Positions 8,596 to 23,007 of a stretch of 32,000 nt of DNA are shown here, piece after piece. The DNA is from Candidatus Lokiarchaeum ossiferum (GTDB taxonomy: Archaea > Asgardarchaeota > Lokiarchaeia > Sigyniarchaeales > Promethearchaeaceae): the NCBI GenBank assembly GCA_025839675.1, contig CP104013.1, positions 3,780,001-3,812,000 on the forward strand, in the 5' to 3' direction. Below the pieces are notes generated by a model. It made no database searches and had not been told where the DNA came from. It saw only the letters and a list, made by a program, of their open reading frames with translations. Numbering within the stretch: the first letter of the stretch is position 1; every line of letters begins with the position of its first letter. The position numbers and the translations under genes are program-made.

Positions 8596-9744
8596 TCAAT
8601 TTTGGGTAGCGAACTCTTTTCCTGAAAGAAATTTTTTTAGAGAGAAATTTTGAATATTACGTTGGTCAGCAACAGACTTTCCAAGATTGTTTACCATGTA
8701 TAAAATTCCAAATCCAGCAAATATTAATGAAAGCATCTCGGAAAAATCGTTTAATGTAAATCCATCTTCGGCTCCAAATAGCGCATTATACTGAACAAAC
8801 GCAGTGATTGAATAGCTCCATAATATTGAAGAGTAAAATTTGGAAGTATCAATCTCTTCCCTTAAATCGATTTGATTTCCAATACTTTTCAATAATTCCC
8901 AAAGCGCTAATAATGAAAATACAATTAGATCCAAAATCAACGGTAAAGATGATCCTTCAGGTGTTAAAATGGACAAGATATCTTGAAAAATGATATAAAT
9001 ATTGTAAATTTGTAGTATTGGAATAATAAAAAGAAAGAATCCCTTCATTTGCCGATAAAATGGAGTATCTTTTTTTCGGATAACAAACAGGATTAGGATT
9101 GCAACAATAAGAAATGAAACTGTGGTCCATGCCCAAAATTTGTAGGCATAAGGAGAGATCGTGTTAAGTTCATCTGAAAGTATATAGTTTTTAACATAAA
9201 CAATTCCGAATATTACGATGACACTTTCAATGGTAATAAACCAGAAGGGTTTTACTTGACGATTCTCAAAATGAAAAGGTTTGCTTAATTTTTGGACAAT
9301 GGGGGCACTGTTTCCAATAATAGATAAATTCTGCAAAATATAGGCTCCTATACCGAATAATGGTATAACAATAATACTGTAGGGGATGAAGAAATAAAAT
9401 ATGAAGGCACAAACTGCTGAAATTAAAAGAAACAAGAAGAAAACTAATTTGTTTTCCATTTTTTTTTCTAATAATTGATGTATTATCGTGAAGAAGAGTA
9501 GGGTTAATTGCAATAAGGAAAATATTAGATCTATCAAAACACGAAGGACTTCGTCCAAATGAATCCATTGGGATTCATCAGTATAAATGGGATTCCAAAT
9601 CGGAAAATAAATAAGTAGGACTAGCCAGATTAAAAATAGTAGTTTCTTTGAAAATCCTTCCCACATAAAATTTCGGAACACGAAAGCGATTTTTTTCGGT
9701 TTTTCTTTAATGTCAGATATTTTTTCCCGCAAGCTTTTTCCCAT
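8596..9744 (-). CDS. Polytopic integral membrane protein, unknown function
   Basis: 382-aa ORF dominated by hydrophobic segments (roughly ten). No motif recognised. Lies 41 bp downstream of mvhD on the same strand. Confidence 0.7.
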   Translation of the reverse strand: MGKSLREKISDIKEKPKKIAFVFRNFMWEGFSKKLLFLIWLVLLIYFPIWNPIYTDESQWIHLDEVLRVLIDLIFSLLQLTLLFFTIIHQLLEKKMENKLVFFLFLLISAVCAFIFYFFIPYSIIVIPLFGIGAYILQNLSIIGNSAPIVQKLSKPFHFENRQVKPFWFITIESVIVIFGIVYVKNYILSDELNTISPYAYKFWAWTTVSFLIVAILILFVIRKKDTPFYRQMKGFFLFIIPILQIYNIYIIFQDILSILTPEGSSLPLILDLIVFSLLALWELLKSIGNQIDLREEIDTSKFYSSILWSYSITAFVQYNALFGAEDGFTLNDFSEMLSLIFAGFGILYMVNNLGKSVADQRNIQNFSLKKFLSGKEFATQN

Positions 9745-9785: not shown

Positions 9786-10259
9786 TTATTTATTTTTTTT
9801 AAAGGGATTTGGTCCTATTTTTTTAAGAATCTTGACATACTCATGAACAATTTCAGTCAGTTCTGCACCTTCACTTGCAGAAATATGTCTTAACCAAACT
9901 CTGTTTGGATTAATTCCAAATTGTTGGATATACTTAGAAATCATTGGAATCCGACGCACCGTTTTGTGATTTCCATTAACATAATGACAATCACCAATGT
10001 GACACGCTCCAACTAATACTCCATCGACTCCTCTTTTCAGAGCAGCTAGCACCATTGCAGGTTCTACTCGGCCTGAACACATTACTCGCATTACACGTAA
10101 ATTTGCGGGTCGTTGCATTCGAGAGGTTCCCGCTTGATCACAGCCTGTATATGTACACCAATTACAAAAAATCCCCAAAATGAAAGGTTCAAAATCATTA
10201 TTCAATGCTGGATCACTATCTGAAACTGTCTCCAAGTTTTTCCCTATTGTGTCGGTCAT
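9786..10259 (-). CDS. mvhD: MvhD/FlpD-type hydrogenase iron-sulfur subunit (delta subunit of methyl-viologen-reducing hydrogenase family)
   Basis: Signature FCNWCTYTGCDQAG, then MCSGRVEP and GACHIGDCHY. Starts 1 nt after the hdrA stop. Confidence 0.85.
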   Translation of the reverse strand: MTDTIGKNLETVSDSDPALNNDFEPFILGIFCNWCTYTGCDQAGTSRMQRPANLRVMRVMCSGRVEPAMVLAALKRGVDGVLVGACHIGDCHYVNGNHKTVRRIPMISKYIQQFGINPNRVWLRHISASEGAELTEIVHEYVKILKKIGPNPFKKNK

Positions 10260-10260
10260 T

Positions 10261-12264
10261 TTAAGTATCTCCTAGAATAGAGTTAATAATAGCCATTAGT
10301 TGGGGGGTAGAAAAATGATTCTGGGTTATAGCATTGCTTGGACAAGTACTAACACAAGTACCACAACCTTTGCATTTAATGCTATTTATTTCTGCTTTGT
10401 TTATTGATTGATTAAACGATATTGCTCCAAATGGGCATTGTTCGATACAGGAACGGCATCCCGAGCATAATCCCGTTTCTACAAATGAATAATAGGGTTC
10501 CACTTCAATTTCCTGTTGAGCCATCAAGGAAGCTGCACTCGCTGCAGCAGCTTTTGCTTGAGCCACCGCATCTGGAATATCCTTAGGGCCTTGAGCAGCT
10601 CCTGCCATAAAAATACCCTCAGTCAAACTATCAACCGGTCGCAATTTTGGATGAGCTTCCAAAAAAAACCCATCTGCTGAACGTTGAATGGTAAGCTGCG
10701 TACTCAGCTGTTCTGCATCATATCTCGATTCCAGACCAACGGATAGAACCACCATATCTACTTGAATTTCGAGGGGTTTTCCAAATAAAGTATCTTCTCC
10801 TCGGATTATTATTGATTTATTCTCTGGATTTTCTGCTAACTCTGATACTCTTCCACGAATGAATTTTATTCGATAATCTCGGGAAGCACTTTCGTAAAAC
10901 TCTTCATATCCTTTTCCAAAAGCGCGAATATCTATATAAAAGATATAAATCTCCGCTTCTGGATGTTTTTCTTTATATTGACGAGCTTGTTTAATTGCAT
11001 ATAAACAACACACACGGCTGCAATAGGGGTGACAGCCTGCTCGTGTATCTCGGCTTCCCACACATTGAATCCATGCTATAGAGTGAGGTGCTTTATTATC
11101 GGAAGGTCGGGCAGGTTTTCCCAATGTGGGTCCTGTGCTACTAAGAAGACGTTCCATTTGAAGTCCATTAATCACATTTTCATATTTGCCATATCCATAA
11201 TTGTGCAAGTATTGCGGATTAATTACATCGTAACCCGTCGTTACAATGATTGTTCCAACATCGAGGTCTAATATATTATCGTTATCATCAAAGTTAATTG
11301 CTCCAGGCTCGCAAACATCTGGTCGAGAACAAATTCCGCAGTGAATACAATGGTTGAGATCAATCGTATATTTTCCCGGCACCGCTTGAGGAAATGGTAT
11401 ATAAATGGCTTTACGGGCATTCATTCCCAGATCAAATTCATTTCCTATCGAAACGGGGCAGTATTGGACACAAGCTCCACATCCAGTGCATTTTTCCTGA
11501 TTAACATAATGGGCTTTTTGCCGAATAGAAACTCTGAAATTGCCGACATATCCATCGATTTTTTCAACTTCTGAGTATGATAAGATTTTAACTTGTGGAT
11601 TTCGGGAGATTTCAACCATCTTAGGTGTTAAAATACATGCAGAGCAATCCATTGTTGGAAATGTTTTATCAAGTTGTGCCATATGTCCTCCTATCGAGAG
11701 ATCTCGTTCCACGAGGTAGACTTGGTAACCTTGAATTGCCAATTCAAGTGCGGAAAATATTCCCGAAATTCCTGCTCCAATAACAAGGCACGATGGCAAA
11801 ACTTTAACCTTTTGTGGGTATAGCGCTTTTAGTGCAGCTGCTTTTCCAATTTGCATGCGTAAATGGTCTTTTGCAATCCGTGTTGCTCCAGGAACATCAT
11901 ACATATGAACCCAAGTCGCATGTTCTCGAATGTTGGCTTGAACAAAATAGTAAGGATTTAATCCTGCTGAAGCCAACACTTGACGAAAGGTTGGTTCGTG
12001 CATTCGCGGACTACATGCTGCAACTACTACTCGATTGACTAAATCATCTTGTATATCTGATTTAATCATATTTTGTCCCACTTCAGAACAAAAAAATTTG
12101 TATTGGCGAGCGACAGAAACAAAGGGCAGTGTTTTTACAAATTCAACTAAGAGATCAACATTAATAACGCCCCCAATGTTCAAACCGCAATGACAGATAT
12201 ATACTCCAATTTTTATCTCCTTCTGAGTAAAATCTTTCTGAGCAGATTTCTTCTTCGACAACAC
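10261..12264 (-). CDS. hdrA: Heterodisulfide reductase subunit A (Cys-type HdrA, FAD plus multiple [4Fe-4S])
   Basis: N-terminal IGVYICHCGLNIGG and VVVAACSPRMHEP. FAD fold VIGAGISGIFSALELAIQG. TFPTMDCSACILTPKM. Inserted and C-terminal ferredoxin motifs (CTGCGACVQYCP, CSGCRSCIEQCP, CKGCGTCVSTCP). Confidence 0.92.
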   Translation of the reverse strand: MLSKKKSAQKDFTQKEIKIGVYICHCGLNIGGVINVDLLVEFVKTLPFVSVARQYKFFCSEVGQNMIKSDIQDDLVNRVVVAACSPRMHEPTFRQVLASAGLNPYYFVQANIREHATWVHMYDVPGATRIAKDHLRMQIGKAAALKALYPQKVKVLPSCLVIGAGISGIFSALELAIQGYQVYLVERDLSIGGHMAQLDKTFPTMDCSACILTPKMVEISRNPQVKILSYSEVEKIDGYVGNFRVSIRQKAHYVNQEKCTGCGACVQYCPVSIGNEFDLGMNARKAIYIPFPQAVPGKYTIDLNHCIHCGICSRPDVCEPGAINFDDNDNILDLDVGTIIVTTGYDVINPQYLHNYGYGKYENVINGLQMERLLSSTGPTLGKPARPSDNKAPHSIAWIQCVGSRDTRAGCHPYCSRVCCLYAIKQARQYKEKHPEAEIYIFYIDIRAFGKGYEEFYESASRDYRIKFIRGRVSELAENPENKSIIIRGEDTLFGKPLEIQVDMVVLSVGLESRYDAEQLSTQLTIQRSADGFFLEAHPKLRPVDSLTEGIFMAGAAQGPKDIPDAVAQAKAAAASAASLMAQQEIEVEPYYSFVETGLCSGCRSCIEQCPFGAISFNQSINKAEINSIKCKGCGTCVSTCPSNAITQNHFSTPQLMAIINSILGDT

Positions 12265-12364: not shown

Positions 12365-13600
12365 TTGATTCATAACATTTCTTCGCTTGATTTAAAAAAA
12401 CTGCTTGATATATCGATCTATTGTTATACGTGCAATGCGTGTAGTATGGTATGTCCTCTAAATCTGGTAAAAGATTTTTCTCCTCGCTATTTCTTATCCC
12501 AATTGAGGTTAAACGGGTTAAAAGATATGGATTCTTTTTTAGCTGATAATGAAGATATCTATAAGTGCATCACTTGCCAACAGTGTATGACAGAATGTCC
12601 AATGTCTAAACCAGGTGAAGGGATGAATATCGTAGAGATTATCCGTATTTTACGGGAATACTCATTCGAAAATAAGCTCAATGCGAAAGAACTTCAACAA
12701 CATTGTACCCATCAGTCAATGATGCAACTAAATTCCACTCTCCATAGTCAATCCGCATCAGTTATTAATCGCATTGATTATATTAGGTCCGATCCTTCAC
12801 TAAAATTTACTGATACAGGTGAAATTGGTTTGTTCTTAGGATGTTTTCAATTTATGGAAGATCTGTTTGAAATACCTAATCGTGAATTTACTGATATCGC
12901 CCGAGGTGCTATAAAGCTTTTAAATCAAAATGATATTGTCCCTGTTATATTAGAAACAAAGTGTTGCGGCCATGATCTATATTGGATGGGAGATACAAAC
13001 AATACAAAAAGATTAGCCGAATTCAATGTGCAAAAATTTAAAGACGCGGGAGTCAAAACCATCATTACAGAATGTGCTGAAGGATACTACATGTGGAAAT
13101 ATGTGTACCCCAAATTGGTGATTGAATGTGATTTTAAAGTCATCCATTTCAGTGAATATATTATCCAGAGCGAGTTACTCAAAAAAATGTTTATGCATCC
13201 ATTAAAAATGAAGGTTACCTATCATGATCCATGCCGTCTTGGACGCTTAAGTAATATATTTGAACCTCCACGACAAATTTTATCCATTCTACCCGGAATT
13301 ACCTATTTAGAAATGAAACACAATCGCACTACCTCATTATGTTGTGGTGTATCAGCCTTTCTTGATTGTAATGCAGAAAAGAAAGTGTTCAGAGAGCTTC
13401 GAATACAAGAAGCAATGGATATAGGTGCAGATTATATCGTCACTACTTGCCCAAAATGTATTGTTCATTATAATTGTTATCTGAAAGAAGTATCCACAAA
13501 TATTCAAAATAGCCAGAATCCCAATGACCAAGATTCAAGACCATTGCCCAAATTGATCGACTTATCTACTTTCCTCGCCAAATATTTTATGTTAATATGA
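12365..13600 (+). CDS. HdrD-like (fused HdrC/HdrB-type) Fe-S protein: 2x[4Fe-4S] ferredoxin domain plus two CCG cysteine-rich domains
   Basis: CYTCNACSMVCP and CITCQQCMTECP at the N-terminus. CCG domains: LGC...KCCGHD and HDPCRLGR...SLCCGVSA...TTCPKC. The TTG start is supported by the upstream GGAGG. Confidence 0.8.
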   Translation: MIHNISSLDLKKLLDISIYCYTCNACSMVCPLNLVKDFSPRYFLSQLRLNGLKDMDSFLADNEDIYKCITCQQCMTECPMSKPGEGMNIVEIIRILREYSFENKLNAKELQQHCTHQSMMQLNSTLHSQSASVINRIDYIRSDPSLKFTDTGEIGLFLGCFQFMEDLFEIPNREFTDIARGAIKLLNQNDIVPVILETKCCGHDLYWMGDTNNTKRLAEFNVQKFKDAGVKTIITECAEGYYMWKYVYPKLVIECDFKVIHFSEYIIQSELLKKMFMHPLKMKVTYHDPCRLGRLSNIFEPPRQILSILPGITYLEMKHNRTTSLCCGVSAFLDCNAEKKVFRELRIQEAMDIGADYIVTTCPKCIVHYNCYLKEVSTNIQNSQNPNDQDSRPLPKLIDLSTFLAKYFMLI

Positions 13601-13643
13601 TCAAATCACCAAGAAATCCCTAAAAAACCACGGAGCTAAACAA

Positions 13644-14156
13644 ATGAGTCCCCAAGAAAAACCAAAGACAATAACTAAGCCAGGTATTGATACATCAAAA
13701 GTTGAAAAAATCATTCAAAATTATATAGAGAACAATGGAAATGCGCTGACAATTTTGCAATCCGTCCAAGAATCTTTTGGTTATTTACCCTTCGAAGTTA
13801 TTGAACATATTTCCGAAAGAATTGGCATTCCCCTTGGAAAAATGTATGGTATTGCCACATTTTATGCCCAATTCAAATTTCATCGAAGAGGCAAATATAT
13901 TATTCAAATTTGTGATGGAACGGCTTGTCATGTTAAGGGATCAATGTTATTGGAAGAATTCATTACTAAAGAATTAGGGATTAAACCCACAGAAACTACC
14001 TCGGATAATTTGTTTTCTTTGGAAAAAGTGGCCTGTTTTGGATGTTGTGCAATTGCTCCAGTTGTTTTCATTAATAAAGATGTCTATGGCAATCTAACAC
14101 CAGCAAAATTAAAGAAAATTTTTAAAAAATATCGTAGAATGGAGGCCACTCCTTGA
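13644..14156 (+). CDS. nuoE: NuoE/HydC-like thioredoxin-fold [2Fe-2S] subunit
   Basis: CDGTACHVKG ... CFGCCAIAP. GGAG box 8 nt upstream of the ATG. Stop TGA at 14154-14156 overlaps the next gene's TTG start. Confidence 0.85.
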   Translation: MSPQEKPKTITKPGIDTSKVEKIIQNYIENNGNALTILQSVQESFGYLPFEVIEHISERIGIPLGKMYGIATFYAQFKFHRRGKYIIQICDGTACHVKGSMLLEEFITKELGIKPTETTSDNLFSLEKVACFGCCAIAPVVFINKDVYGNLTPAKLKKIFKKYRRMEATP

Positions 14157-15967
14157 AAAAGCAGAAGATTGAAATTATAGTGTGTTGCAGCACAGGTTGT
14201 AATTCCCTTGGGGGGCAAGAAATATATGAAGAATTAGAAAAATGTATTAAAGACTACAAACTCGACAAACATGTGAAAGTTAAACCCACTGGTTGCCATG
14301 GATTCTGCCAAACAGGTCCTAGGATGTTGATCAATCCAGAAGGTGTGCTGTATGTATATCTAAAAAAAACTGATGTTAAAAAAATCATTGAACAACATCT
14401 CATTGGGGGTAAAATCGTTGAAGAACTCACGTACAAAGATCCTGTGACAAAAAAAACCGTCCAAAAACGAGATGATATCAATTTTTACAAGTATCAAGTA
14501 TCAATAACAACAAAAAATTGTGGTAAAATTAATCCTGAAGACATCAACGATTATTTAGCTGTTGGAGGGTACGAATCCCTAAAAAAGATACTTCAAATGA
14601 AACCAGATCAAGTTATTAAAGAAGTCTCAACCTCACGACTTAGGGGAAAGGGAGGGGCTGGATTTCCAACAGGAACAAAGTGGTCCTTTCTTGCTCAAGA
14701 AGCAAATACTCCAAAGTACTTGATATGTAACGGTGATGAAGGAGATCCTGGTGCATTTATGGATCGCACAATTATGGAAAGTGATCCTCAATCGGTGATT
14801 GAGGGAATGCTTATAGGTGCGTATGCAACCGGAGCTTCTTCTGGATTTGTGTATGTTCGAGCAGAAAAACCCCTTGCCGCCTCTCGGATGGCGAAAGCTA
14901 TTGAACAAGCTCAAGAACACGGTTTTTTAGGCTCTAATATACTAAATTCTGGGCTGGATTTTGATCTTCAGATTAGAAAAGGGGCTGGTGCATTCGTATG
15001 TGGAGAAGAAACCGCTCTTATGAGTTCCATTTTAGGAAATAGAGGTAGTCCGCGCCCACGCCCACCATATCCCGCTAATTCTGGATTATGGGGTAAACCT
15101 ACAAATATTAACAATGTGAAAACTTGGGCGACTATTCCGAAAATTTTTGCCATGGGGGCAGAGAATTATGCAAAAATTGGAACTGCAGATTCATCGGGAA
15201 CTGCTATTTTGTGTCTCTCGGGGAATATCAACAACGCGGGATTAATAGAAATTCCAATGGGTACCACTATCCGCAGAGTTGTTTATGATATTGGTGGGGG
15301 GTGTCCCAATGGAAAAAAATTTAAGGCGATACAAATTGGAGGACCATCCGGGGGATGCATTCCAGAACAATATCTCGATGTGGAAATGATCGATACACAA
15401 ATTGATTTCAAATCGATCACTTCTTTAGGTGCAATCATGGGTAGTGGTGGGTTAATTGTCCTTGATGAGTCTACTTGCTTAGTTGATATGGCCCGCTATT
15501 TTATCCAGTTCACTCAAAATGAATCCTGTGGAAAATGTGTCCCGTGTCGTATAGGTACACGCAAGATGCTTCGTATTCTCGATAGAATCGTCACGGGGCA
15601 AGGCTCTTATGAAGATTTAGATGAATTAGAATCTTTGGCATATACTATTAAAAATGCCAGTTTATGCGGCTTGGGGCAAACGGCTCCAAATCCCATTATT
15701 AGTACTCTTAAATATTTCCGTGATGAATACGAAGCCCATATTAAAGGAATATGTCCTGCTTTAGTGTGTAAAAATTTGATTACTTATCACATTTCTGATG
15801 AAAATTGTATCGGATGCGGATTATGTGCCAAAAATTGTCCAGTAAATGCAATTCAAGGGGAATTGAAGAAGAAATTCCACATTGATACTAATCTCTGCAT
15901 TAAATGCGGATTGTGTTTTAGTTCCTGTCATAATAATGCAATCTATAAAAAAACAGGGGGAAAGTAG
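14153..15967 (+). CDS. nuoF: NuoF/HydB-like NAD(H)- and FMN-binding flavoprotein with an extra N-terminal [2Fe-2S] domain and a C-terminal 2x[4Fe-4S] domain
   Basis: LRGKGGAGFPTGTKW (FMN/NADH site), CGKCVPCRIG (N3 cluster), N-terminal CCSTGC...CHGFC, C-terminal CIGCGLCAKNCP and CIKCGLCFSSC. GGAGG lies 7 nt upstream of TTG 14153. Confidence 0.9.
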   Translation: MKKQKIEIIVCCSTGCNSLGGQEIYEELEKCIKDYKLDKHVKVKPTGCHGFCQTGPRMLINPEGVLYVYLKKTDVKKIIEQHLIGGKIVEELTYKDPVTKKTVQKRDDINFYKYQVSITTKNCGKINPEDINDYLAVGGYESLKKILQMKPDQVIKEVSTSRLRGKGGAGFPTGTKWSFLAQEANTPKYLICNGDEGDPGAFMDRTIMESDPQSVIEGMLIGAYATGASSGFVYVRAEKPLAASRMAKAIEQAQEHGFLGSNILNSGLDFDLQIRKGAGAFVCGEETALMSSILGNRGSPRPRPPYPANSGLWGKPTNINNVKTWATIPKIFAMGAENYAKIGTADSSGTAILCLSGNINNAGLIEIPMGTTIRRVVYDIGGGCPNGKKFKAIQIGGPSGGCIPEQYLDVEMIDTQIDFKSITSLGAIMGSGGLIVLDESTCLVDMARYFIQFTQNESCGKCVPCRIGTRKMLRILDRIVTGQGSYEDLDELESLAYTIKNASLCGLGQTAPNPIISTLKYFRDEYEAHIKGICPALVCKNLITYHISDENCIGCGLCAKNCPVNAIQGELKKKFHIDTNLCIKCGLCFSSCHNNAIYKKTGGK

Positions 15968-18886
15968 ATGGAAAATCAATCACTTATCATAGATGGGAAA
16001 GAAATCGAGTTTTTTAAAGGGGAAACTATCTTGATGGCTGCCGAGCGTGCAGGAATTTATATTCCTCGATTATGCTATATCGATGGAATGACCCCTTATG
16101 GTGGATGTCGCTTATGTATTGTTAAATTGGTCGGGGATCTTCGTCCAATTCAGCCTTCTTGTTCAACTCCTGCAAAAGCAGGAATGAATATTATTACAAT
16201 TGATGAAGAACTTCAACGTATGAGAAAAGATATTATACAATTGATGATCAGCGAACACCCGAATACTTGTCTGGTTTGTGGTCATAAAACGGTTTGCGAA
16301 GATTACCAAACTCAATTCAAAAAAAACCCCGAGAAACGGGTATTTGGCTGTTATAACTGCTCTCAAAAAAATAAGTGCGAGCTCCGAGAAATTATCGACT
16401 ACATCGGAGCGAGTGATTTGACTCAAGAATTTGAATATAAAAATTATGAAATTGAAAATTTGGACCCTTTTTTTGAAAGACATTATAATTTGTGTATCGT
16501 TTGTGGGAAATGCGTGCGAGTTTGTGGAGAACTGCGGGGAATCAATGCGATAGATTTTTTTGGTCGGGGACATGATCTCAGGATATCCACTCCAATGAAT
16601 ATGCTTCATATTGAAACTAACTGCCAATTTTGTGGGGCATGTGTAGATATCTGTCCTACCGGAGTCCTCGTCCCTTTAATGCAGACTTGGACACGAACAC
16701 GTGAGATTTTCACCAAATCGATTTGTGGACATTGCTCGATTGGCTGTGGTTTAAACTACTACATGGAAAATGAAGAACTTGTGGAAACTATTCCGAACAA
16801 AAGCGCAAAGATCAATAAGGGTCAAGCGTGTGTTTTTGGACGGTTTTGCATTCCTGTTTTTAATAGGCGAAATGAAACTCAGTTTCACACTCCTTTGATT
16901 CGTTCTGACAATATTCTAAAACCAGTCATGTACAATGAAGCATATTCCACTTGTATCACGATGCTTCGGAAATATTCTCCCGATGAAATTGCAGTGCTAG
17001 CATCTCCAGACCTATCAAATGAGAGTGCTTTTATTTTAAATCAATTTGCATCAAAAGTATTAAAAACATCCAATATAGCAACCATTTGTGATAACAATTG
17101 CTTAGAAAATTTTCAATTATTAACAGCGATTCCTCGATCACTTGATCATATTCCAAAATCTGATTGGATTTTATTGGTTGATGCAAATCCTCAAGTATCC
17201 CACCCTCTCATTTTAATTGATATAAAGAAGGCTAAGGATCTCAATAAGACGATAGTAAGCTTAAAACATTCGCCATTGAAAATTGCGCCAGAAACAAAAT
17301 GGTTGCTGGATGAAGAGTTGCTATTATCAGAAGATAGTCTAATTTCTAAGCTTAGTGAATTTCAAGAAGGAATTGGGAGTATTCTGGTCGGACCTCAAAC
17401 AACATCAAATATTTTCATTAGTCTAATCAATCTTTGCCTTAAAAACCCGAATATTAATTTGATTCCATTACGATCTCGAGCCAATTTGGATGGCGTTTTC
17501 CAATTTATCCCTCAAACAGAAGATCTTGTATACAATGCCATAAAGGAAAAAAAAATTAAAGTATTGCTAACCACTGAAAGAATCTCCCCCACATTGGCCA
17601 AATATGTGGAGAACATCATTTTATTAGATATTTTTCCCTCGGATTTTTCCAATAAAGCGAATATTATTTTTCCAGTTACGACATTTCCCGAATCATCAGG
17701 AACTCTTACGAATATTGAATTTGACAACCAACGATTTTATGCAAGCGTTACACCCTTTCGCGATGCAAAACCCGATTGGCAAATCATTTGTGAACTTGCT
17801 CAACAAATGAAGACAGAAGGGTTTAATTATACCAATGTGCAGGATATTATGGAAAATTTACCCATGATCCCAAGTGTTCAAATTACTGATCTAAATCTTC
17901 TCCTCCTAAAAAAAATGTCCCTCCAATATGGAAAACCAATCAGTTGGGATGATTTTGTCTATAGAGGAGAGAAAATTTCAAATCGTGTTCCAGATTTGAA
18001 GAAAATCATTGAATATCGAAAAACAAAGAATCCGGAGTTAATTGCTGGAGTCCTAACTGCAAGTCAGGATGAAACAACTGGTTTAATTGAGATAGAAATT
18101 GATGGGAAAGGTATGGTGAAGGTTGGGACGCAATTCTTCGGGTTGGATTCTATTAAATCAATCATAAAAATTGCGCATCTTTCAAATTATCGTTTGAAAA
18201 TTATCGTTGATGCATCTAATCCTAATTTCAGATATGTAGATCGCCATAAATTTTGTATGTGCAACAATTACAAAGCAAATTTGAACGAATCTCATATTTT
18301 AATTGATTTTGCTCCATCGTTGTGTGATATGTATCTTCGAATTCCCCAAGAAGGGGATGAAATCCTAAAGAGTGTGGATGGACTTATTATGGTTGATAGT
18401 AGATACACAAACATTACTGAAGAAGAATATCACGAATTTGTTCAAATTGGCGATAGTAAAACCAAAATGCAAGAGCGAGCACTGCATCGAGCCCATCAAC
18501 TTCTCAAAGATGAATCTATCTATTATTCATTGAATCATATTCAGACCCAAGAAAAATCGATGCTTCGACCAACATGGGGCGTTTGGAATAAAAAAGTGCC
18601 GGAATATAAAGAAACAACTTCTTCTATAATACAACAAACTCAAAAAGTAGTCCTTGTTGATCAAGATTTATGCATGGGATGCAGAACTTGCGAGAAATAT
18701 TGTAAACACGAAGCAATTTCGTATGTGTTGATCAACCAAGATGTTGGAATATTTAAGGGAAAAGAAATGCAAAAAGCAACCATCGATGGCACAAAATGTT
18801 ATAACTGTTCGAAATGTATTTCCCACTGTCCAGTAAATGCCATATATATTCGTGAATGGCCGGTAGAAGAAACATCCTTGAAATAA
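15968..18886 (+). CDS. NuoG/HydA-N-terminal-like multi-Fe-S subunit with a degenerate molybdopterin-oxidoreductase-like domain, an unassigned ~200-aa region and a terminal 2x[4Fe-4S] ferredoxin domain
   Basis: [2Fe-2S] N-terminus (IIDGKEIEFFKGETILMAAERAGIYIPRLCY...GGCRLCIV). EHPNTCLVCGHKTVCE, then a second CYNCSQKNKCEL. CIVCGKCVRVC and CQFCGACVDICP. MopB-type CGHCSIGCG...KGQACVFGRF. No Cys/Sec-His active-site motif (ICDNNCLENF at the corresponding place) and no H-cluster motifs. C-terminus CMGCRTCEKYC and CYNCSKCISHCP. Confidence 0.8.
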   Translation: MENQSLIIDGKEIEFFKGETILMAAERAGIYIPRLCYIDGMTPYGGCRLCIVKLVGDLRPIQPSCSTPAKAGMNIITIDEELQRMRKDIIQLMISEHPNTCLVCGHKTVCEDYQTQFKKNPEKRVFGCYNCSQKNKCELREIIDYIGASDLTQEFEYKNYEIENLDPFFERHYNLCIVCGKCVRVCGELRGINAIDFFGRGHDLRISTPMNMLHIETNCQFCGACVDICPTGVLVPLMQTWTRTREIFTKSICGHCSIGCGLNYYMENEELVETIPNKSAKINKGQACVFGRFCIPVFNRRNETQFHTPLIRSDNILKPVMYNEAYSTCITMLRKYSPDEIAVLASPDLSNESAFILNQFASKVLKTSNIATICDNNCLENFQLLTAIPRSLDHIPKSDWILLVDANPQVSHPLILIDIKKAKDLNKTIVSLKHSPLKIAPETKWLLDEELLLSEDSLISKLSEFQEGIGSILVGPQTTSNIFISLINLCLKNPNINLIPLRSRANLDGVFQFIPQTEDLVYNAIKEKKIKVLLTTERISPTLAKYVENIILLDIFPSDFSNKANIIFPVTTFPESSGTLTNIEFDNQRFYASVTPFRDAKPDWQIICELAQQMKTEGFNYTNVQDIMENLPMIPSVQITDLNLLLLKKMSLQYGKPISWDDFVYRGEKISNRVPDLKKIIEYRKTKNPELIAGVLTASQDETTGLIEIEIDGKGMVKVGTQFFGLDSIKSIIKIAHLSNYRLKIIVDASNPNFRYVDRHKFCMCNNYKANLNESHILIDFAPSLCDMYLRIPQEGDEILKSVDGLIMVDSRYTNITEEEYHEFVQIGDSKTKMQERALHRAHQLLKDESIYYSLNHIQTQEKSMLRPTWGVWNKKVPEYKETTSSIIQQTQKVVLVDQDLCMGCRTCEKYCKHEAISYVLINQDVGIFKGKEMQKATIDGTKCYNCSKCISHCPVNAIYIREWPVEETSLK

Positions 18887-18910: not shown

Positions 18911-18982
18911 CAATTAGCTTCATCGTTGCAAGATGCATCATGTTTACTCGAAGTTTTTAGTAAACGGTCATCTGACTAATTG
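18911..18982 (-). promoter_or_regulatory. Candidate SECIS-like (kink-turn) RNA element in the 3' UTR of the Sec-type hdrA
   Basis: Minus-strand RNA: CAAUUAG-UCAG-AUGA-CC-GUUUACU-[AAAAACUUCG]-AGUAAAC-AUGAUG-(CAUC-UUGCAAC-GAUG)-AAG-CUAAUUG. It has an outer 7-bp helix and an inner 7-bp helix. AUGA faces UGAU, giving U.U, G.A and A.G pairs. The apical loop is A-rich. It starts 67 nt after the stop codon. Confidence 0.5.
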
Positions 18983-21192: not shown

Positions 21193-23007
21193 TTGGATAG
21201 AAAGTATAAACTGTTACAATTCCTCACAAACGAAGTTGATCAGCAGATGACTTTTACCCCCCTTGAAGCCCGGAGTTATTACCAACATCTAATTAATCAA
21301 GATCCACAAGATCCAAGCGGATATCTTGGGATGGGTGATCTTGCGTTTTATGGTGGTTTTTATCAAGAAGCTATCTCATATTTTACTCAAGCAATTAATT
21401 GTGACTCCCAAAATTTTGCCAGTTGGGTCGGTTTAACAAAAATTTTTCTACATTATAATAGTATTCAACAAGCAGAAGAATGTCTCATCGAGGCTTTGAA
21501 TGTAGATCCTATAAACCATGAAGCTCTGATTCTCGCAACGATAATTAAAATCCGCTTAAATGAATATGCTAAAGGATTAGATTTCCTTGATAAAATTGGG
21601 GAAGACAATGAAAGCCCTTATGATTCGCTATCTCTATATTTGCGTGGATATATCGCATGTTTGCTTGGTGATTTTGAAGATGGGTTAGAACATTTAAAAT
21701 CTTGCGAGGTGTTGCCTCCCTTTAATGATAAAACCAACTCAAATTATCAAATTTTGTGGAATAATTTGGGGGTCGCAAATTTTCGGTTTAAGAGATTTAC
21801 GGAAGCCGAAAATTATTTACAGAATATCACTCAAAAATTTCCTTTATGTGATTCCATTTCGTGGCTAAATCTCGCCATGGTTTATTGGGCTCAAGACAAA
21901 ATCGATCAAAGTATCATAATATTCGAAAAAATCCAATCTTTACAACCAAAACTATGGCCCTGGTTAAAAGAAACCAAAGAATATCGCAGTCGGGGTCAAG
22001 AATGGTTACACGAAGCGATTCAAAATTTGCAAACCGAATCTACAATTTACAATGTTGGATTGTATTTAGGCTGCGTGATTCCTAATCGATATCCTTTTAT
22101 TGAGGCTGCTACTCGTCATGTATTTGATACTTTAAATATAGGTGTCGTAGATCTTGAAGGTGCATCTTGTTGTCCCGCTCCGGGGGTATTTCGATCATTT
22201 GATATTGAAACTTGGTTGACATTGGGTGCCCGAAATATTACAATAAGCGAACAATTGCAACGAGATCTCGTAACCATGTGTAATGGGTGCTATGGAACGT
22301 TGAATGATGTGAATTATGAACTTAAAACGGATTCAGAAAAACGAACGCTTGTAAATGATAATTTGAATAAAGTAGATCGTGAATTCCAAGGATCCATTAA
22401 CGTCCGTCATATTATTGATGTACTTTTTAATGAAATTGGTCTTGACGCACTCAAAAAACGAATTACGCATCCATTGACACTTAGAGTGGCTGTTCATTAT
22501 GGGTGTCATCTCCTAAAACCGATGAAAACTAAACCTTGGACCGAAGATTGGGAAGAGCCGACGTTTTTTGATGATTTGGTGGAAATTACGGGGGTTACGT
22601 CAGTTCCCTATAAGGAAAAAATGATGTGTTGCGGGGCTGGAGGTGGAGTTCGGGGTGCCTTGAAAGAAATTTCATTGGATTTTACCCGAGAAAAATTAAT
22701 CCACATGCGAGATGCAGGGATTGATGCCATTGTGGTATGCTGTCCATTCTGTCATCTCCAATTTGACATTGGCCAATTGGAAGTAAATAATATCTTCAAG
22801 AAACAAATTCGAGATCCCTTTAACATTCCCGTAATTTATATCACTCAATTACTCGGGTTAGCAATGGGATTTGATCCCTTTCGAATGGGCTTGCTAAAAA
22901 CACCGCAAGAAAAAGGAGTTCCCCCCATGAATAAATTTGAACTTCTCTTCACAAAATATAAACCATTAGATCTTCACAATACATCACTGTTTTTGCCCAG
23001 GACTTGA
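21193..23007 (+). CDS. hdrB: TPR-repeat domain fused to heterodisulfide reductase subunit B (two CCG domains)
   Basis: Residues from about 286 to the end are colinear with canonical HdrB: LYLGCVIPNRYPFIEAATR, LEGASCCPAPGVF, NGCYGTL, VAVHYGCHLLKP, KMMCCGAGGGVR, CCPFCHLQFD. Residues 1 to about 285 are called TPR-like by eye from Tyr/Ala/Leu-rich stretches (e.g. GYLGMGDLAFYGGFYQEAISYFTQAINCD); the repeat register was not verified. Start is TTG 21193 or ATG 21247. Stop TGA at 23005-23007. Confidence 0.85.
   Translation: MDRKYKLLQFLTNEVDQQMTFTPLEARSYYQHLINQDPQDPSGYLGMGDLAFYGGFYQEAISYFTQAINCDSQNFASWVGLTKIFLHYNSIQQAEECLIEALNVDPINHEALILATIIKIRLNEYAKGLDFLDKIGEDNESPYDSLSLYLRGYIACLLGDFEDGLEHLKSCEVLPPFNDKTNSNYQILWNNLGVANFRFKRFTEAENYLQNITQKFPLCDSISWLNLAMVYWAQDKIDQSIIIFEKIQSLQPKLWPWLKETKEYRSRGQEWLHEAIQNLQTESTIYNVGLYLGCVIPNRYPFIEAATRHVFDTLNIGVVDLEGASCCPAPGVFRSFDIETWLTLGARNITISEQLQRDLVTMCNGCYGTLNDVNYELKTDSEKRTLVNDNLNKVDREFQGSINVRHIIDVLFNEIGLDALKKRITHPLTLRVAVHYGCHLLKPMKTKPWTEDWEEPTFFDDLVEITGVTSVPYKEKMMCCGAGGGVRGALKEISLDFTREKLIHMRDAGIDAIVVCCPFCHLQFDIGQLEVNNIFKKQIRDPFNIPVIYITQLLGLAMGFDPFRMGLLKTPQEKGVPPMNKFELLFTKYKPLDLHNTSLFLPRT

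Follow-up and report, generated by a model that had tools for sequence, protein, structure and literature searches.

The stretch of DNA that we analysed, referred to below as the window, spans 32,000 nucleotides of the Candidatus Lokiarchaeum ossiferum genome and carries on its minus strand the gene for a HdrA homolog, in which Pfam detects Fer4, FAD-binding and Pyr_redox domains and whose last 449 residues match an annotated protein of Candidatus Lokiarchaeum ossiferum with 100% identity. The reading frame contains two in-frame TGA codons (Table 1). These specify residues 20 and 204, positions that are occupied by Cys or Sec in homologs and that include the canonical site near residue 200 (PMC4989117), and two-Sec HdrA orthologs, with Sec at both of the same positions, are present for two Lokiarchaeia MAGs in the sequence file of Huang, Xiao and Zhang (2024; PMC11227280). 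Downstream of hdrA no vhuD/frhD (FlpD) gene lies between it and the RNA element that is the subject of this study, and the next gene, which encodes a molybdopterin oxidoreductase, is convergent with hdrA and separated from it by a gap of 163 nt. The same window also has a Cys-type hdrA-mvhD pair (12264..9786, minus strand), which is without TGA codons. A scan of the whole window for tRNAs detected no tRNA-Sec.

The element lies within the gap between the convergent genes, on the sense strand of hdrA, with its lower helix P1 beginning 67 nt and its AUGA motif 78 nt behind the hdrA stop codon. It is followed by a U8 tract that is 9 nt from the end of the convergent oxidoreductase gene. Transcription termination in archaea requires an oligo-U stretch and does not require a hairpin, and the U8 tract is likely to be where transcription of hdrA terminates.

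Table 1. The Sec-hdrA locus and the predicted SECIS in its 3' UTR, in window coordinates and in the order of the hdrA transcript, followed by the convergent neighbour
Feature	Position	Strand	Remarks
hdrA, HdrA homolog, 658 aa	19050..21026	-	translation; Pfam domains
hdrA in-frame TGA 1	20969-20967	-	residue 20, context FICR-U-GINI
hdrA in-frame TGA 2	20417-20415	-	residue 204, context DCSI-U-ILGP; canonical HdrA Sec position
hdrA stop codon TAA	19052-19050	-	
3' UTR spacer, 67 nt, from hdrA stop to lower helix	18983..19049	-	partly conserved among orthologs
P1 lower helix, 5' strand, CAAUUAG	18982-18976	-	RNAfold MFE; U18975 may add a U.G pair
J1 internal-loop strand, UCAG	18975-18972	-	clade consensus ends CAA, CAG or CAU
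AUGA, 5' half of core	18971-18968	-	putative U.U, G.A, A.G non-Watson-Crick quartet
P2 upper helix, 5' strand, CCGUUUACU	18967-18959	-	positions 1-2 C.U and C.A mismatches, then 7 Watson-Crick pairs
Apical loop AAAAACUUCG, 10 nt	18958-18949	-	starts AAAAA, ends CG
P2 upper helix, 3' strand, AGUAAACAU	18948-18940	-	
GA, 3' half of core	18939-18938	-	invariant in clade
J2, UG	18937-18936	-	
P3 side hairpin, CAUC-UUGCAAC-GAUG	18935-18921	-	loop with conserved GCA/GCG motif
J3, AAG	18920-18918	-	
P1 lower helix, 3' strand, CUAAUUG	18917-18911	-	
U8 tract, 8 nt after P1	18902-18895	-	U7-U9 tract kept in 5/5 orthologs
NuoG/FdhA-like molybdopterin oxidoreductase, 972 aa, convergent neighbour	15968..18886	+	without in-frame TGA

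The original prediction had placed a candidate SECIS in this 3' UTR, built from an outer helix, an internal loop, AUGA facing a GA-containing strand, a 7-bp helix topped by a 10-nt loop and a small side hairpin, and we could confirm every structural feature that it listed along with the position of each on the minus strand. In the minimum free energy structure given by RNAfold for the 72-86-nt stretch all three helices are formed, namely the outer one, the inner one of 7 bp and that of the side hairpin. The whole element reaches -11.9 kcal/mol and the core hairpin a marginal -5.1 kcal/mol, the corresponding z-scores of -1.2 and -2.1 are weak, and folding of the plus strand is just as favourable at -13.1 kcal/mol. 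Taken alone, thermodynamics is no better than chance at this site and does not tell the two strands apart.

We also searched the window with two sequence patterns of differing stringency. The strict lokiSECIS pattern, which follows the published description of these elements, demands AUGA and next to it a stem 8-10 positions long in which no more than 2 are mismatched, a loop of 9-12 nt in which four or more of the first five nucleotides are A and the last is G, and then GA or AA. On both strands of the 32-kb window it has a single match, the site in the hdrA 3' UTR. Dinucleotide shuffles give an expectation of 0.14 matches per 64 kb, equivalent to ~4e-4 for the 163-nt UTR on one strand, a chance figure that is somewhat optimistic, with the tolerances having been set when the candidate had already been seen, and that is supportive rather than decisive. 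The loose published pattern for type I elements (GA_GA or GA_AA, a stem of 7-15 bp in which up to 2 mismatches are allowed, a loop of 8-20 nt) yields 137 matches across the window and has no value as a test. These 137 matches, together with the weak folding z-scores, are what might suggest a chance palindrome in which AUGA and GA have come to lie opposite each other by accident; the uniqueness of the strict match already points the other way, and the comparative data presented below bear on this reading more directly.

Models of previously known SECIS classes are silent on the element. No SECIS family, whether eukaryotic, archaeal or bacterial, was detected with Rfam in the whole window at gathering score or in a 700-nt region at E-values up to 10; the sole matches, to Yfr21 and to a C/D snoRNA (E about 8), are at chance level and were rejected. 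This silence is not evidence against a SECIS because the literature predicts it for lokiSECIS, the authors of the lokiSECIS study having themselves found that eukaryotic and other SECIS models fail to detect these elements (PMC4989117). Likewise, a scan of positions 19080-18887 on the minus strand for the methanogen-type GAA_A pattern returned no matches, and no G-C clamp pattern is present there.

Five loci (L001-L005) are syntenic with the hdrA locus of the window: their HdrA proteins are 71-87% identical to the one encoded here, vhuD is absent and the convergent gene is the same. Three of them (L001-L003) belong to Promethearchaeum or Promethearchaeota MAGs, and the other two (L004 and L005) are metagenome contigs on which hdrA is flanked by a divergent TPR-CCG gene and a convergent molybdopterin oxidoreductase of ~970 aa, again without vhuD. 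A search of genome contigs with an HdrA fragment gave 3 loci, L. ossiferum not being among them. In the 3' UTRs of all five syntenic orthologs the AUGA, the GA, the AAAC of the loop and the terminal loop G are invariant, and compensatory changes are seen in all three helices. The loop-closing U-A pair of P2 is replaced by A-U, and in L004 an internal U-A pair is replaced by C-G. Changes from G-C to G-U and from U-A to U-G also occur in the helices. In P1 the series runs from CAAUUAG/CUAAUUG through AAUUGG/CCAAUU to CAUUGG/CCAAUG. At the stem base the C.A mismatch of the window copy becomes a U-A pair, and the orthologs have 8 P2 pairs as against the 7 Watson-Crick pairs of the window copy. In our overall weighing, the two core-adjacent mismatches and the presence of just 7 Watson-Crick pairs in the window copy were counted against its being a SECIS.

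To assemble a wider set of elements, metagenome contigs were searched with an alignment of HdrA proteins, which yielded 80 loci, and in about 60 of these a pattern search recovers the classical form of lokiSECIS, located about 500 nt behind hdrA, which is to say behind vhuD. A covariance model derived from 52 non-redundant classical lokiSECIS copies (R1) assigns the candidate 3.5 bits, the best score within the UTR yet not a significant one. The same model also misses the hdrA-vhuD-linked SECIS of the genomes nearest to the window, and because these clade elements escape it too we regard R1 as a model of one sequence subtype and as too narrow. The R1 score was nevertheless entered on the negative side of the balance, beside the silence of Rfam, the weak z-scores and the marginal energy of the core hairpin.

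A second covariance model (R2) was of a different composition, being trained on 5 Lokiarchaeum-clade elements behind hdrA-vhuD tandems (L006, L007, L008, L093 and L016); none of these 5 loci is syntenic with the window locus, and one of them, L008, comes from a different L. ossiferum genome (CP163304). When the window is scanned with R2, the candidate ranks first, at 42.7 bits and an E-value of about 9e-9 under a rough calibration, and is matched on the hdrA-sense strand only, while the second-best match has 16.5 bits and lacks the stem. The model further recovers all five syntenic orthologs as well as additional tandem-type elements. On the strand of the Cys-type hdrA-mvhD pair it finds no lokiSECIS-like element, and since these genes have no TGA, such an absence is what a link between the element and Sec decoding would predict. 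No other SECIS-like candidate is to be found in the window, as judged by Rfam, by the GAA_A pattern in the UTR and by R2.

Alignment of the 15 available clade sequences shows that 7 of the 9 pairs of P2 change on both sides. Across these 15 elements 81.7% of the P2 cells are paired, as against 35-48% when the partners are slid, and the covariation score of the helix is 0.71, as against 0.10-0.17 in the slid controls. Of the 14 distinct sequences, 13 have a non-Watson-Crick pair at the position adjoining the core. AUGA itself is invariant both in the clade (15/15) and in the classical lokiSECIS (52/52), and GA is likewise invariant in the 15 clade elements. Elsewhere the two groups diverge in sequence. 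The Lokiarchaeum-clade loop has 10-12 nt, with an invariant AAAC at loop positions 3-6 and a G as its last nucleotide in 13 of 14 elements (the exception, L090, has a loop ending in GU), and its stem is followed by GAUG or GAUC; the classical loop has 11 nt in all 52 copies and reads ...AAAU...UAG, with GAC after the stem. On sequence grounds, lokiSECIS falls into at least two subtypes, a model of one of which misses the other, and the element behind hdrA is assigned by the same features to the lokiSECIS family and, within it, to the Lokiarchaeum-clade subtype.

The 3' UTR of the two-UGA hdrA contains a structured, strand-specific and covarying RNA of the lokiSECIS family. The chance palindrome considered above is ruled out by these comparative data, for it would have to account for an R2 E-value of about 1e-8 and for conservation and covariation that extend across orthologs of 71-87% identity and across paralogous operons; we give it a vanishingly small probability.

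Another alternative, raised as a caveat in the original prediction, is that the palindrome is a bidirectional terminator hairpin serving the two convergent genes, with its likeness to a SECIS being a coincidence. The 163-nt convergent gap, the A8 and U/T runs that flank the element on both strands and the comparable stability of the plus strand (-13.1 vs -11.9 kcal/mol) would all suit such a device. However, archaeal termination depends on oligo-U and has no need of a hairpin, and a scan for bacterial-type hairpin terminators made no calls. Moreover, the invariant AUGA, GA and AAAC motifs are strand-asymmetric and R2 matches one strand only, about 20 G.U pairs found in the family would turn into A.C mismatches on the opposite strand, and the same element stands behind hdrA-vhuD tandems whose downstream neighbours are on the same strand (L008, L093 and L094). 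As a primary role, bidirectional termination is thus unsupported and in our estimate very improbable. Termination at the U8 tract probably does take place, alongside the SECIS role and without replacing it.

The small side hairpin on the 3' side of the element turned out to be a regular component of the family. When 14 clade and 37 classical elements were folded and parsed, a common plan emerged, P1-J1-AUGA-P2-apical loop-P2'-GA-J2-P3 hairpin-J3-P1', with a J1 of 3-6 nt and a J2 of 0-4 nt. In each of the 51 lokiSECIS elements parsed, P3 comes after the core GA and ahead of the 3' strand of P1. The parser used for P1 and P3 demands pairing, and its figure of 100% paired is circular; the weight of the result rests instead on covariation and on the slid and shuffle controls. 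In the clade, P1 has 7-9 bp and 11 distinct sequences among the 14 elements, with two-sided changes in all 9 of its pair columns, and P3 has 3-6 bp, with two-sided changes in all 6 of its populated pairs. For the whole three-helix structure in the 14 elements the covariation score is 0.78, as against at most 0.14 when the partners are slid, and shuffled flanks equalled the weakest real P1+P3 score in 0.6% of trials. These values were obtained from an N-padded structural alignment, used in place of a full-length MAFFT alignment of the elements in which gaps of the loop and the stem were wrongly placed. In the window and in L004 the automatic parse of P3 first gave UGCA-ucu-UGCA, and J2 was then set to UG by homology with the orthologs.

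The P3 loop also retains a motif, GCA or GCG in 12 of 14 clade elements and GCR or GUR in 32 of 37 classical ones. P3 is joined directly to P1 in 33 of the 37 classical elements, and in the clade J3 forms a linker of 2-9 nt. The side hairpin is accordingly best described as a conserved third helix, which at the level of predicted secondary structure gives the element a k-junction-like topology. The main texts of the two surveys of such elements, figures and structure supplements aside, make no mention of a side hairpin or junction (PMC4989117, PMC11227280).

Several lines of evidence converge on the function of the element. Its gene context, with two in-frame TGA codons at Cys/Sec positions and the element 67 nt after the stop codon, the uniqueness of the strict pattern, the covariation among orthologs, the R2 score of 42.7 bits and the lack of an alternative SECIS lead us to regard it with considerable confidence as the predicted SECIS of a stand-alone Sec-hdrA mRNA, belonging to the lokiSECIS / eSECIS-like type I family and serving, as a single element, both UGA codons. 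The original proposal of a 3'-UTR SECIS for the two codons is upheld in this respect. AUGA/GA cores are generic K-turn signatures and are bound by proteins of the L7Ae family. The element might then be a conserved K-turn or three-way-junction element of the 3' UTR with a role unrelated to Sec, for example an L7Ae site that affects the stability or translation of hdr mRNA. That SBP2 has not been found in Asgard archaea (PMC11227280) would be in keeping with such a role, as would the report that a lokiarchaeal SECIS was not functional in Methanococcus maripaludis (PMC11881835), an observation that we also counted against the SECIS reading. Nevertheless, all the loci that we examined have the element behind an hdrA or an hdrA-vhuD pair with TGA codons, the Cys-type hdrA-mvhD of the same window is without it in the R2 scan, and the lokiSECIS survey reports the motif for unrelated selenoproteins as well, PrxL and VhuU among them (PMC4989117). 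We therefore hold a role outside Sec decoding to be improbable and favour the SECIS.

As a SECIS, the element might operate along the following lines. The hdrA transcript would pass the stop codon and extend to the U8 tract, and its 3' UTR would fold into P1, the internal loop, the AUGA/GA core, P2 with its A-rich loop and P3, an arrangement backed by covariation. For the AUGA/GA core the predicted geometry is one of tandem sheared G.A pairs with a K-turn-like kink. By analogy with other systems, an archaeal factor, or perhaps the Sec-specific elongation factor itself, could read the kinked core and the A-rich loop, and such a factor would bring EFSec/Sec-tRNASec to ribosomes paused at the UGA codons ~1.45 and 2.0 kb upstream, in the manner of the eukaryotic and methanogen SECIS that act from the 3' UTR.

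We further put forward, as a tentative suggestion that may well prove wrong, that lokiarchaeial SECIS in general are three-way, k-junction-like RNAs as opposed to simple hairpins, and that P3, with its GCA/GCG-type loop, is part of what the SECIS-reading factor recognises. If P3 were so recognised, this could help explain both the escape of these elements from eukaryotic SECIS models and the failure of one of them in a methanogen, and it would provide a concrete RNA bait for the SECIS-reading factor in a cultivable Asgard archaeon. To our knowledge, L. ossiferum is one of very few Asgard archaea in laboratory culture. With a culturable host, mapping of 3' ends, selenium labelling, proteomics and RNA pull-downs become feasible for this exact element.

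The kind of element described here is already known, as lokiSECIS since 2016 and as the eSECIS-like type I since 2024. What goes beyond the published descriptions is a stand-alone Sec-hdrA with a SECIS of its own and no vhuD/frhD partner, a sequence subtype that the classical model misses, and the conservation of P1 and P3. Neither L. ossiferum nor its accession or SECIS sequence appears in the searchable part of the supplementary text of Huang 2024 (PMC11227280), and the literature that we searched contains no detailed treatment of L. ossiferum selenoproteins. More generally, the SECIS of Asgard archaea have been proposed as a link between archaeal and eukaryotic Sec decoding, all of them being computational predictions.

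The closest relatives of the element are the lokiSECIS defined by Mariotti et al. (2016), in which AUGA lies directly 5' of a 9-bp stem and GA (or AA) directly 3' of it, the loop has 11 nt with its first five A-rich and its last a G, usually after A, and the whole is close behind the coding sequence (PMC4989117). The window element matches the published Lokiarchaeota SECIS in its location in the 3' UTR near the stop codon, its AUGA, its 9-position stem and its GA; its loop likewise has A in the first five positions and G in the last, and in both cases one element serves several UGA codons, as in the hdrA of the window. The window copy differs in having a loop of 10 instead of 11 nt that ends in CG instead of AG, GAUG instead of GAC after the stem, and two mismatches at the stem base. 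It also differs in its gene: the 2016 survey had hdrA always paired with vhuD, with one SECIS shared by the two behind vhuD (PMC4989117), whereas hdrA stands alone in the window, as it does in L004 and L005.

The Asgard eSECIS-like type I of Huang, Xiao and Zhang (2024) is sought from -30 to +600 nt relative to the stop codon and at an energy below -5 kcal/mol (PMC11227280). The window element conforms to this type in every respect, namely the GA_GA core, stem, loop, position and energy, although the definition is a non-specific one, as its 137 matches in the window attest. The same authors describe hdrA and frhD as always neighbours (PMC11227280), a rule of adjacency that is broken by the hdrA of the window. 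With the SECIS of methanogens (Methanococcus, Methanopyrus) the element shares the 3' UTR location and an association with the HdrA selenoprotein family; those have a GAA_A bulge, in contrast to the UTR of the window, which has neither this bulge nor the G-C clamp.

The element had been called eukaryote-like, a description that is apt for its core and loop motifs but does not extend to detection, with no eukaryotic or other SECIS model of Rfam picking it up. In common with the eukaryotic SECIS of type I (RF00031 and relatives) it has the AUGA...GA quartet motif, unpaired A's at the start of the loop, a lower helix with an internal loop, and a site in the 3' UTR, and its sequence would allow the U.U, G.A and A.G pairs of a putative tandem sheared quartet. 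It departs from them in going unmatched by the Rfam models and in bearing an extra third helix on the 3' strand, and its Asgard host group is without a known SBP2.

Finally, this third helix invites comparison with the k-junctions described by Wang et al. (2014), of which the TPP riboswitch is an example and in which a third helix is set into the non-bulged strand of a K-turn, facing the loop (PMC4005666); such junctions also have the tertiary contacts of a K-turn, with the third helix stacked coaxially on the C helix. The placement of P3 on the 3' strand agrees with that topology at the secondary-structure level only. The k-junctions have no sequence relation to lokiSECIS, and with lokiSECIS known here from sequence alone the comparison is one of inferred likeness and not of membership. 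The P3 of the classical elements, which directly abuts P1, is compatible with the coaxial stacking of the two helices.

The genes surrounding the Sec-type stand-alone hdrA constitute an electron-bifurcation-style cluster (see table). In two loci with gene tables, the metagenome contigs L004 and L005, hdrA is flanked as in the window by a TPR-CCG gene and a molybdopterin gene of about 970 aa. The vhuD-linked SECIS at L016:1721-1754, from a clade hdrA-vhuD locus with a 68%-identical hdrA, has an upper helix (UCGUUUACC/GGUAAACGG) nearly identical in sequence to that (CCGUUUACU/AGUAAACAU) of the window's stand-alone element at 18971-18938. This near-equality suggests that the stand-alone arrangement was derived from a tandem through loss of vhuD and retention of the SECIS.

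Seven kb from the Sec-type stand-alone hdrA lies a second hdrA, paired with mvhD/FlpD, for which no SECIS-like element was found behind the pair on the minus strand of the window. Its relation to the classical hdrA-vhuD tandem is that of a Cys-type paralog.

Genes of the Cys-type pair and of the cluster around the Sec-type hdrA
Feature	Position	Strand	Remarks
hdrA (667 aa), then directly mvhD/FlpD (157 aa)	9786-12264	-	No in-frame TGA in either gene
Unannotated 382-aa ORF	8596-9744	-	Directly downstream of Cys-type mvhD; no Pfam match
Fer4+CCG protein, HdrC/B-like	in 12365-18886	+	
NuoE-like and NuoF-like proteins	in 12365-18886	+	
NuoG/FdhA-like molybdopterin protein (972 aa)	15968-18886	+	
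TPR-CCG fusion, HdrB-like	21193-23007	+	Divergent from Sec-type hdrA

The hdrA/vhuD lokiSECIS elements fall into at least two sequence subtypes, modelled by R1 (alignment A3; loop NNAAAU..UAG, with GAC after the stem) versus R2 (alignment A5; loop NNAAAC..G, with GAUG after the stem). The runner-up match of R2 in the window (9553-9579, plus strand; 16.5 bits, E about 0.03) comprises GUCCAAAUGAA...GGAUUCAUC without the stem, lies antisense within the 382-aa ORF and is probably due to chance. The R1 covariance model failed to detect the R2 subtype; hence, surveys relying on a single model could undercount Asgard SECIS elements.

Classical lokiSECIS behind hdrA-vhuD (L018-L089, about 60 loci from the HdrA alignment scan; e.g. 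L019:3304-3346) likewise possess a lower helix, which is short and reads (A)CCGA/UCGG(U), and a third hairpin, ACCAU...GCA...AUGGU, which adjoins the lower helix without a linker. Thus, the three-helix plan is not peculiar to the window's clade but is common to lokiSECIS at large.
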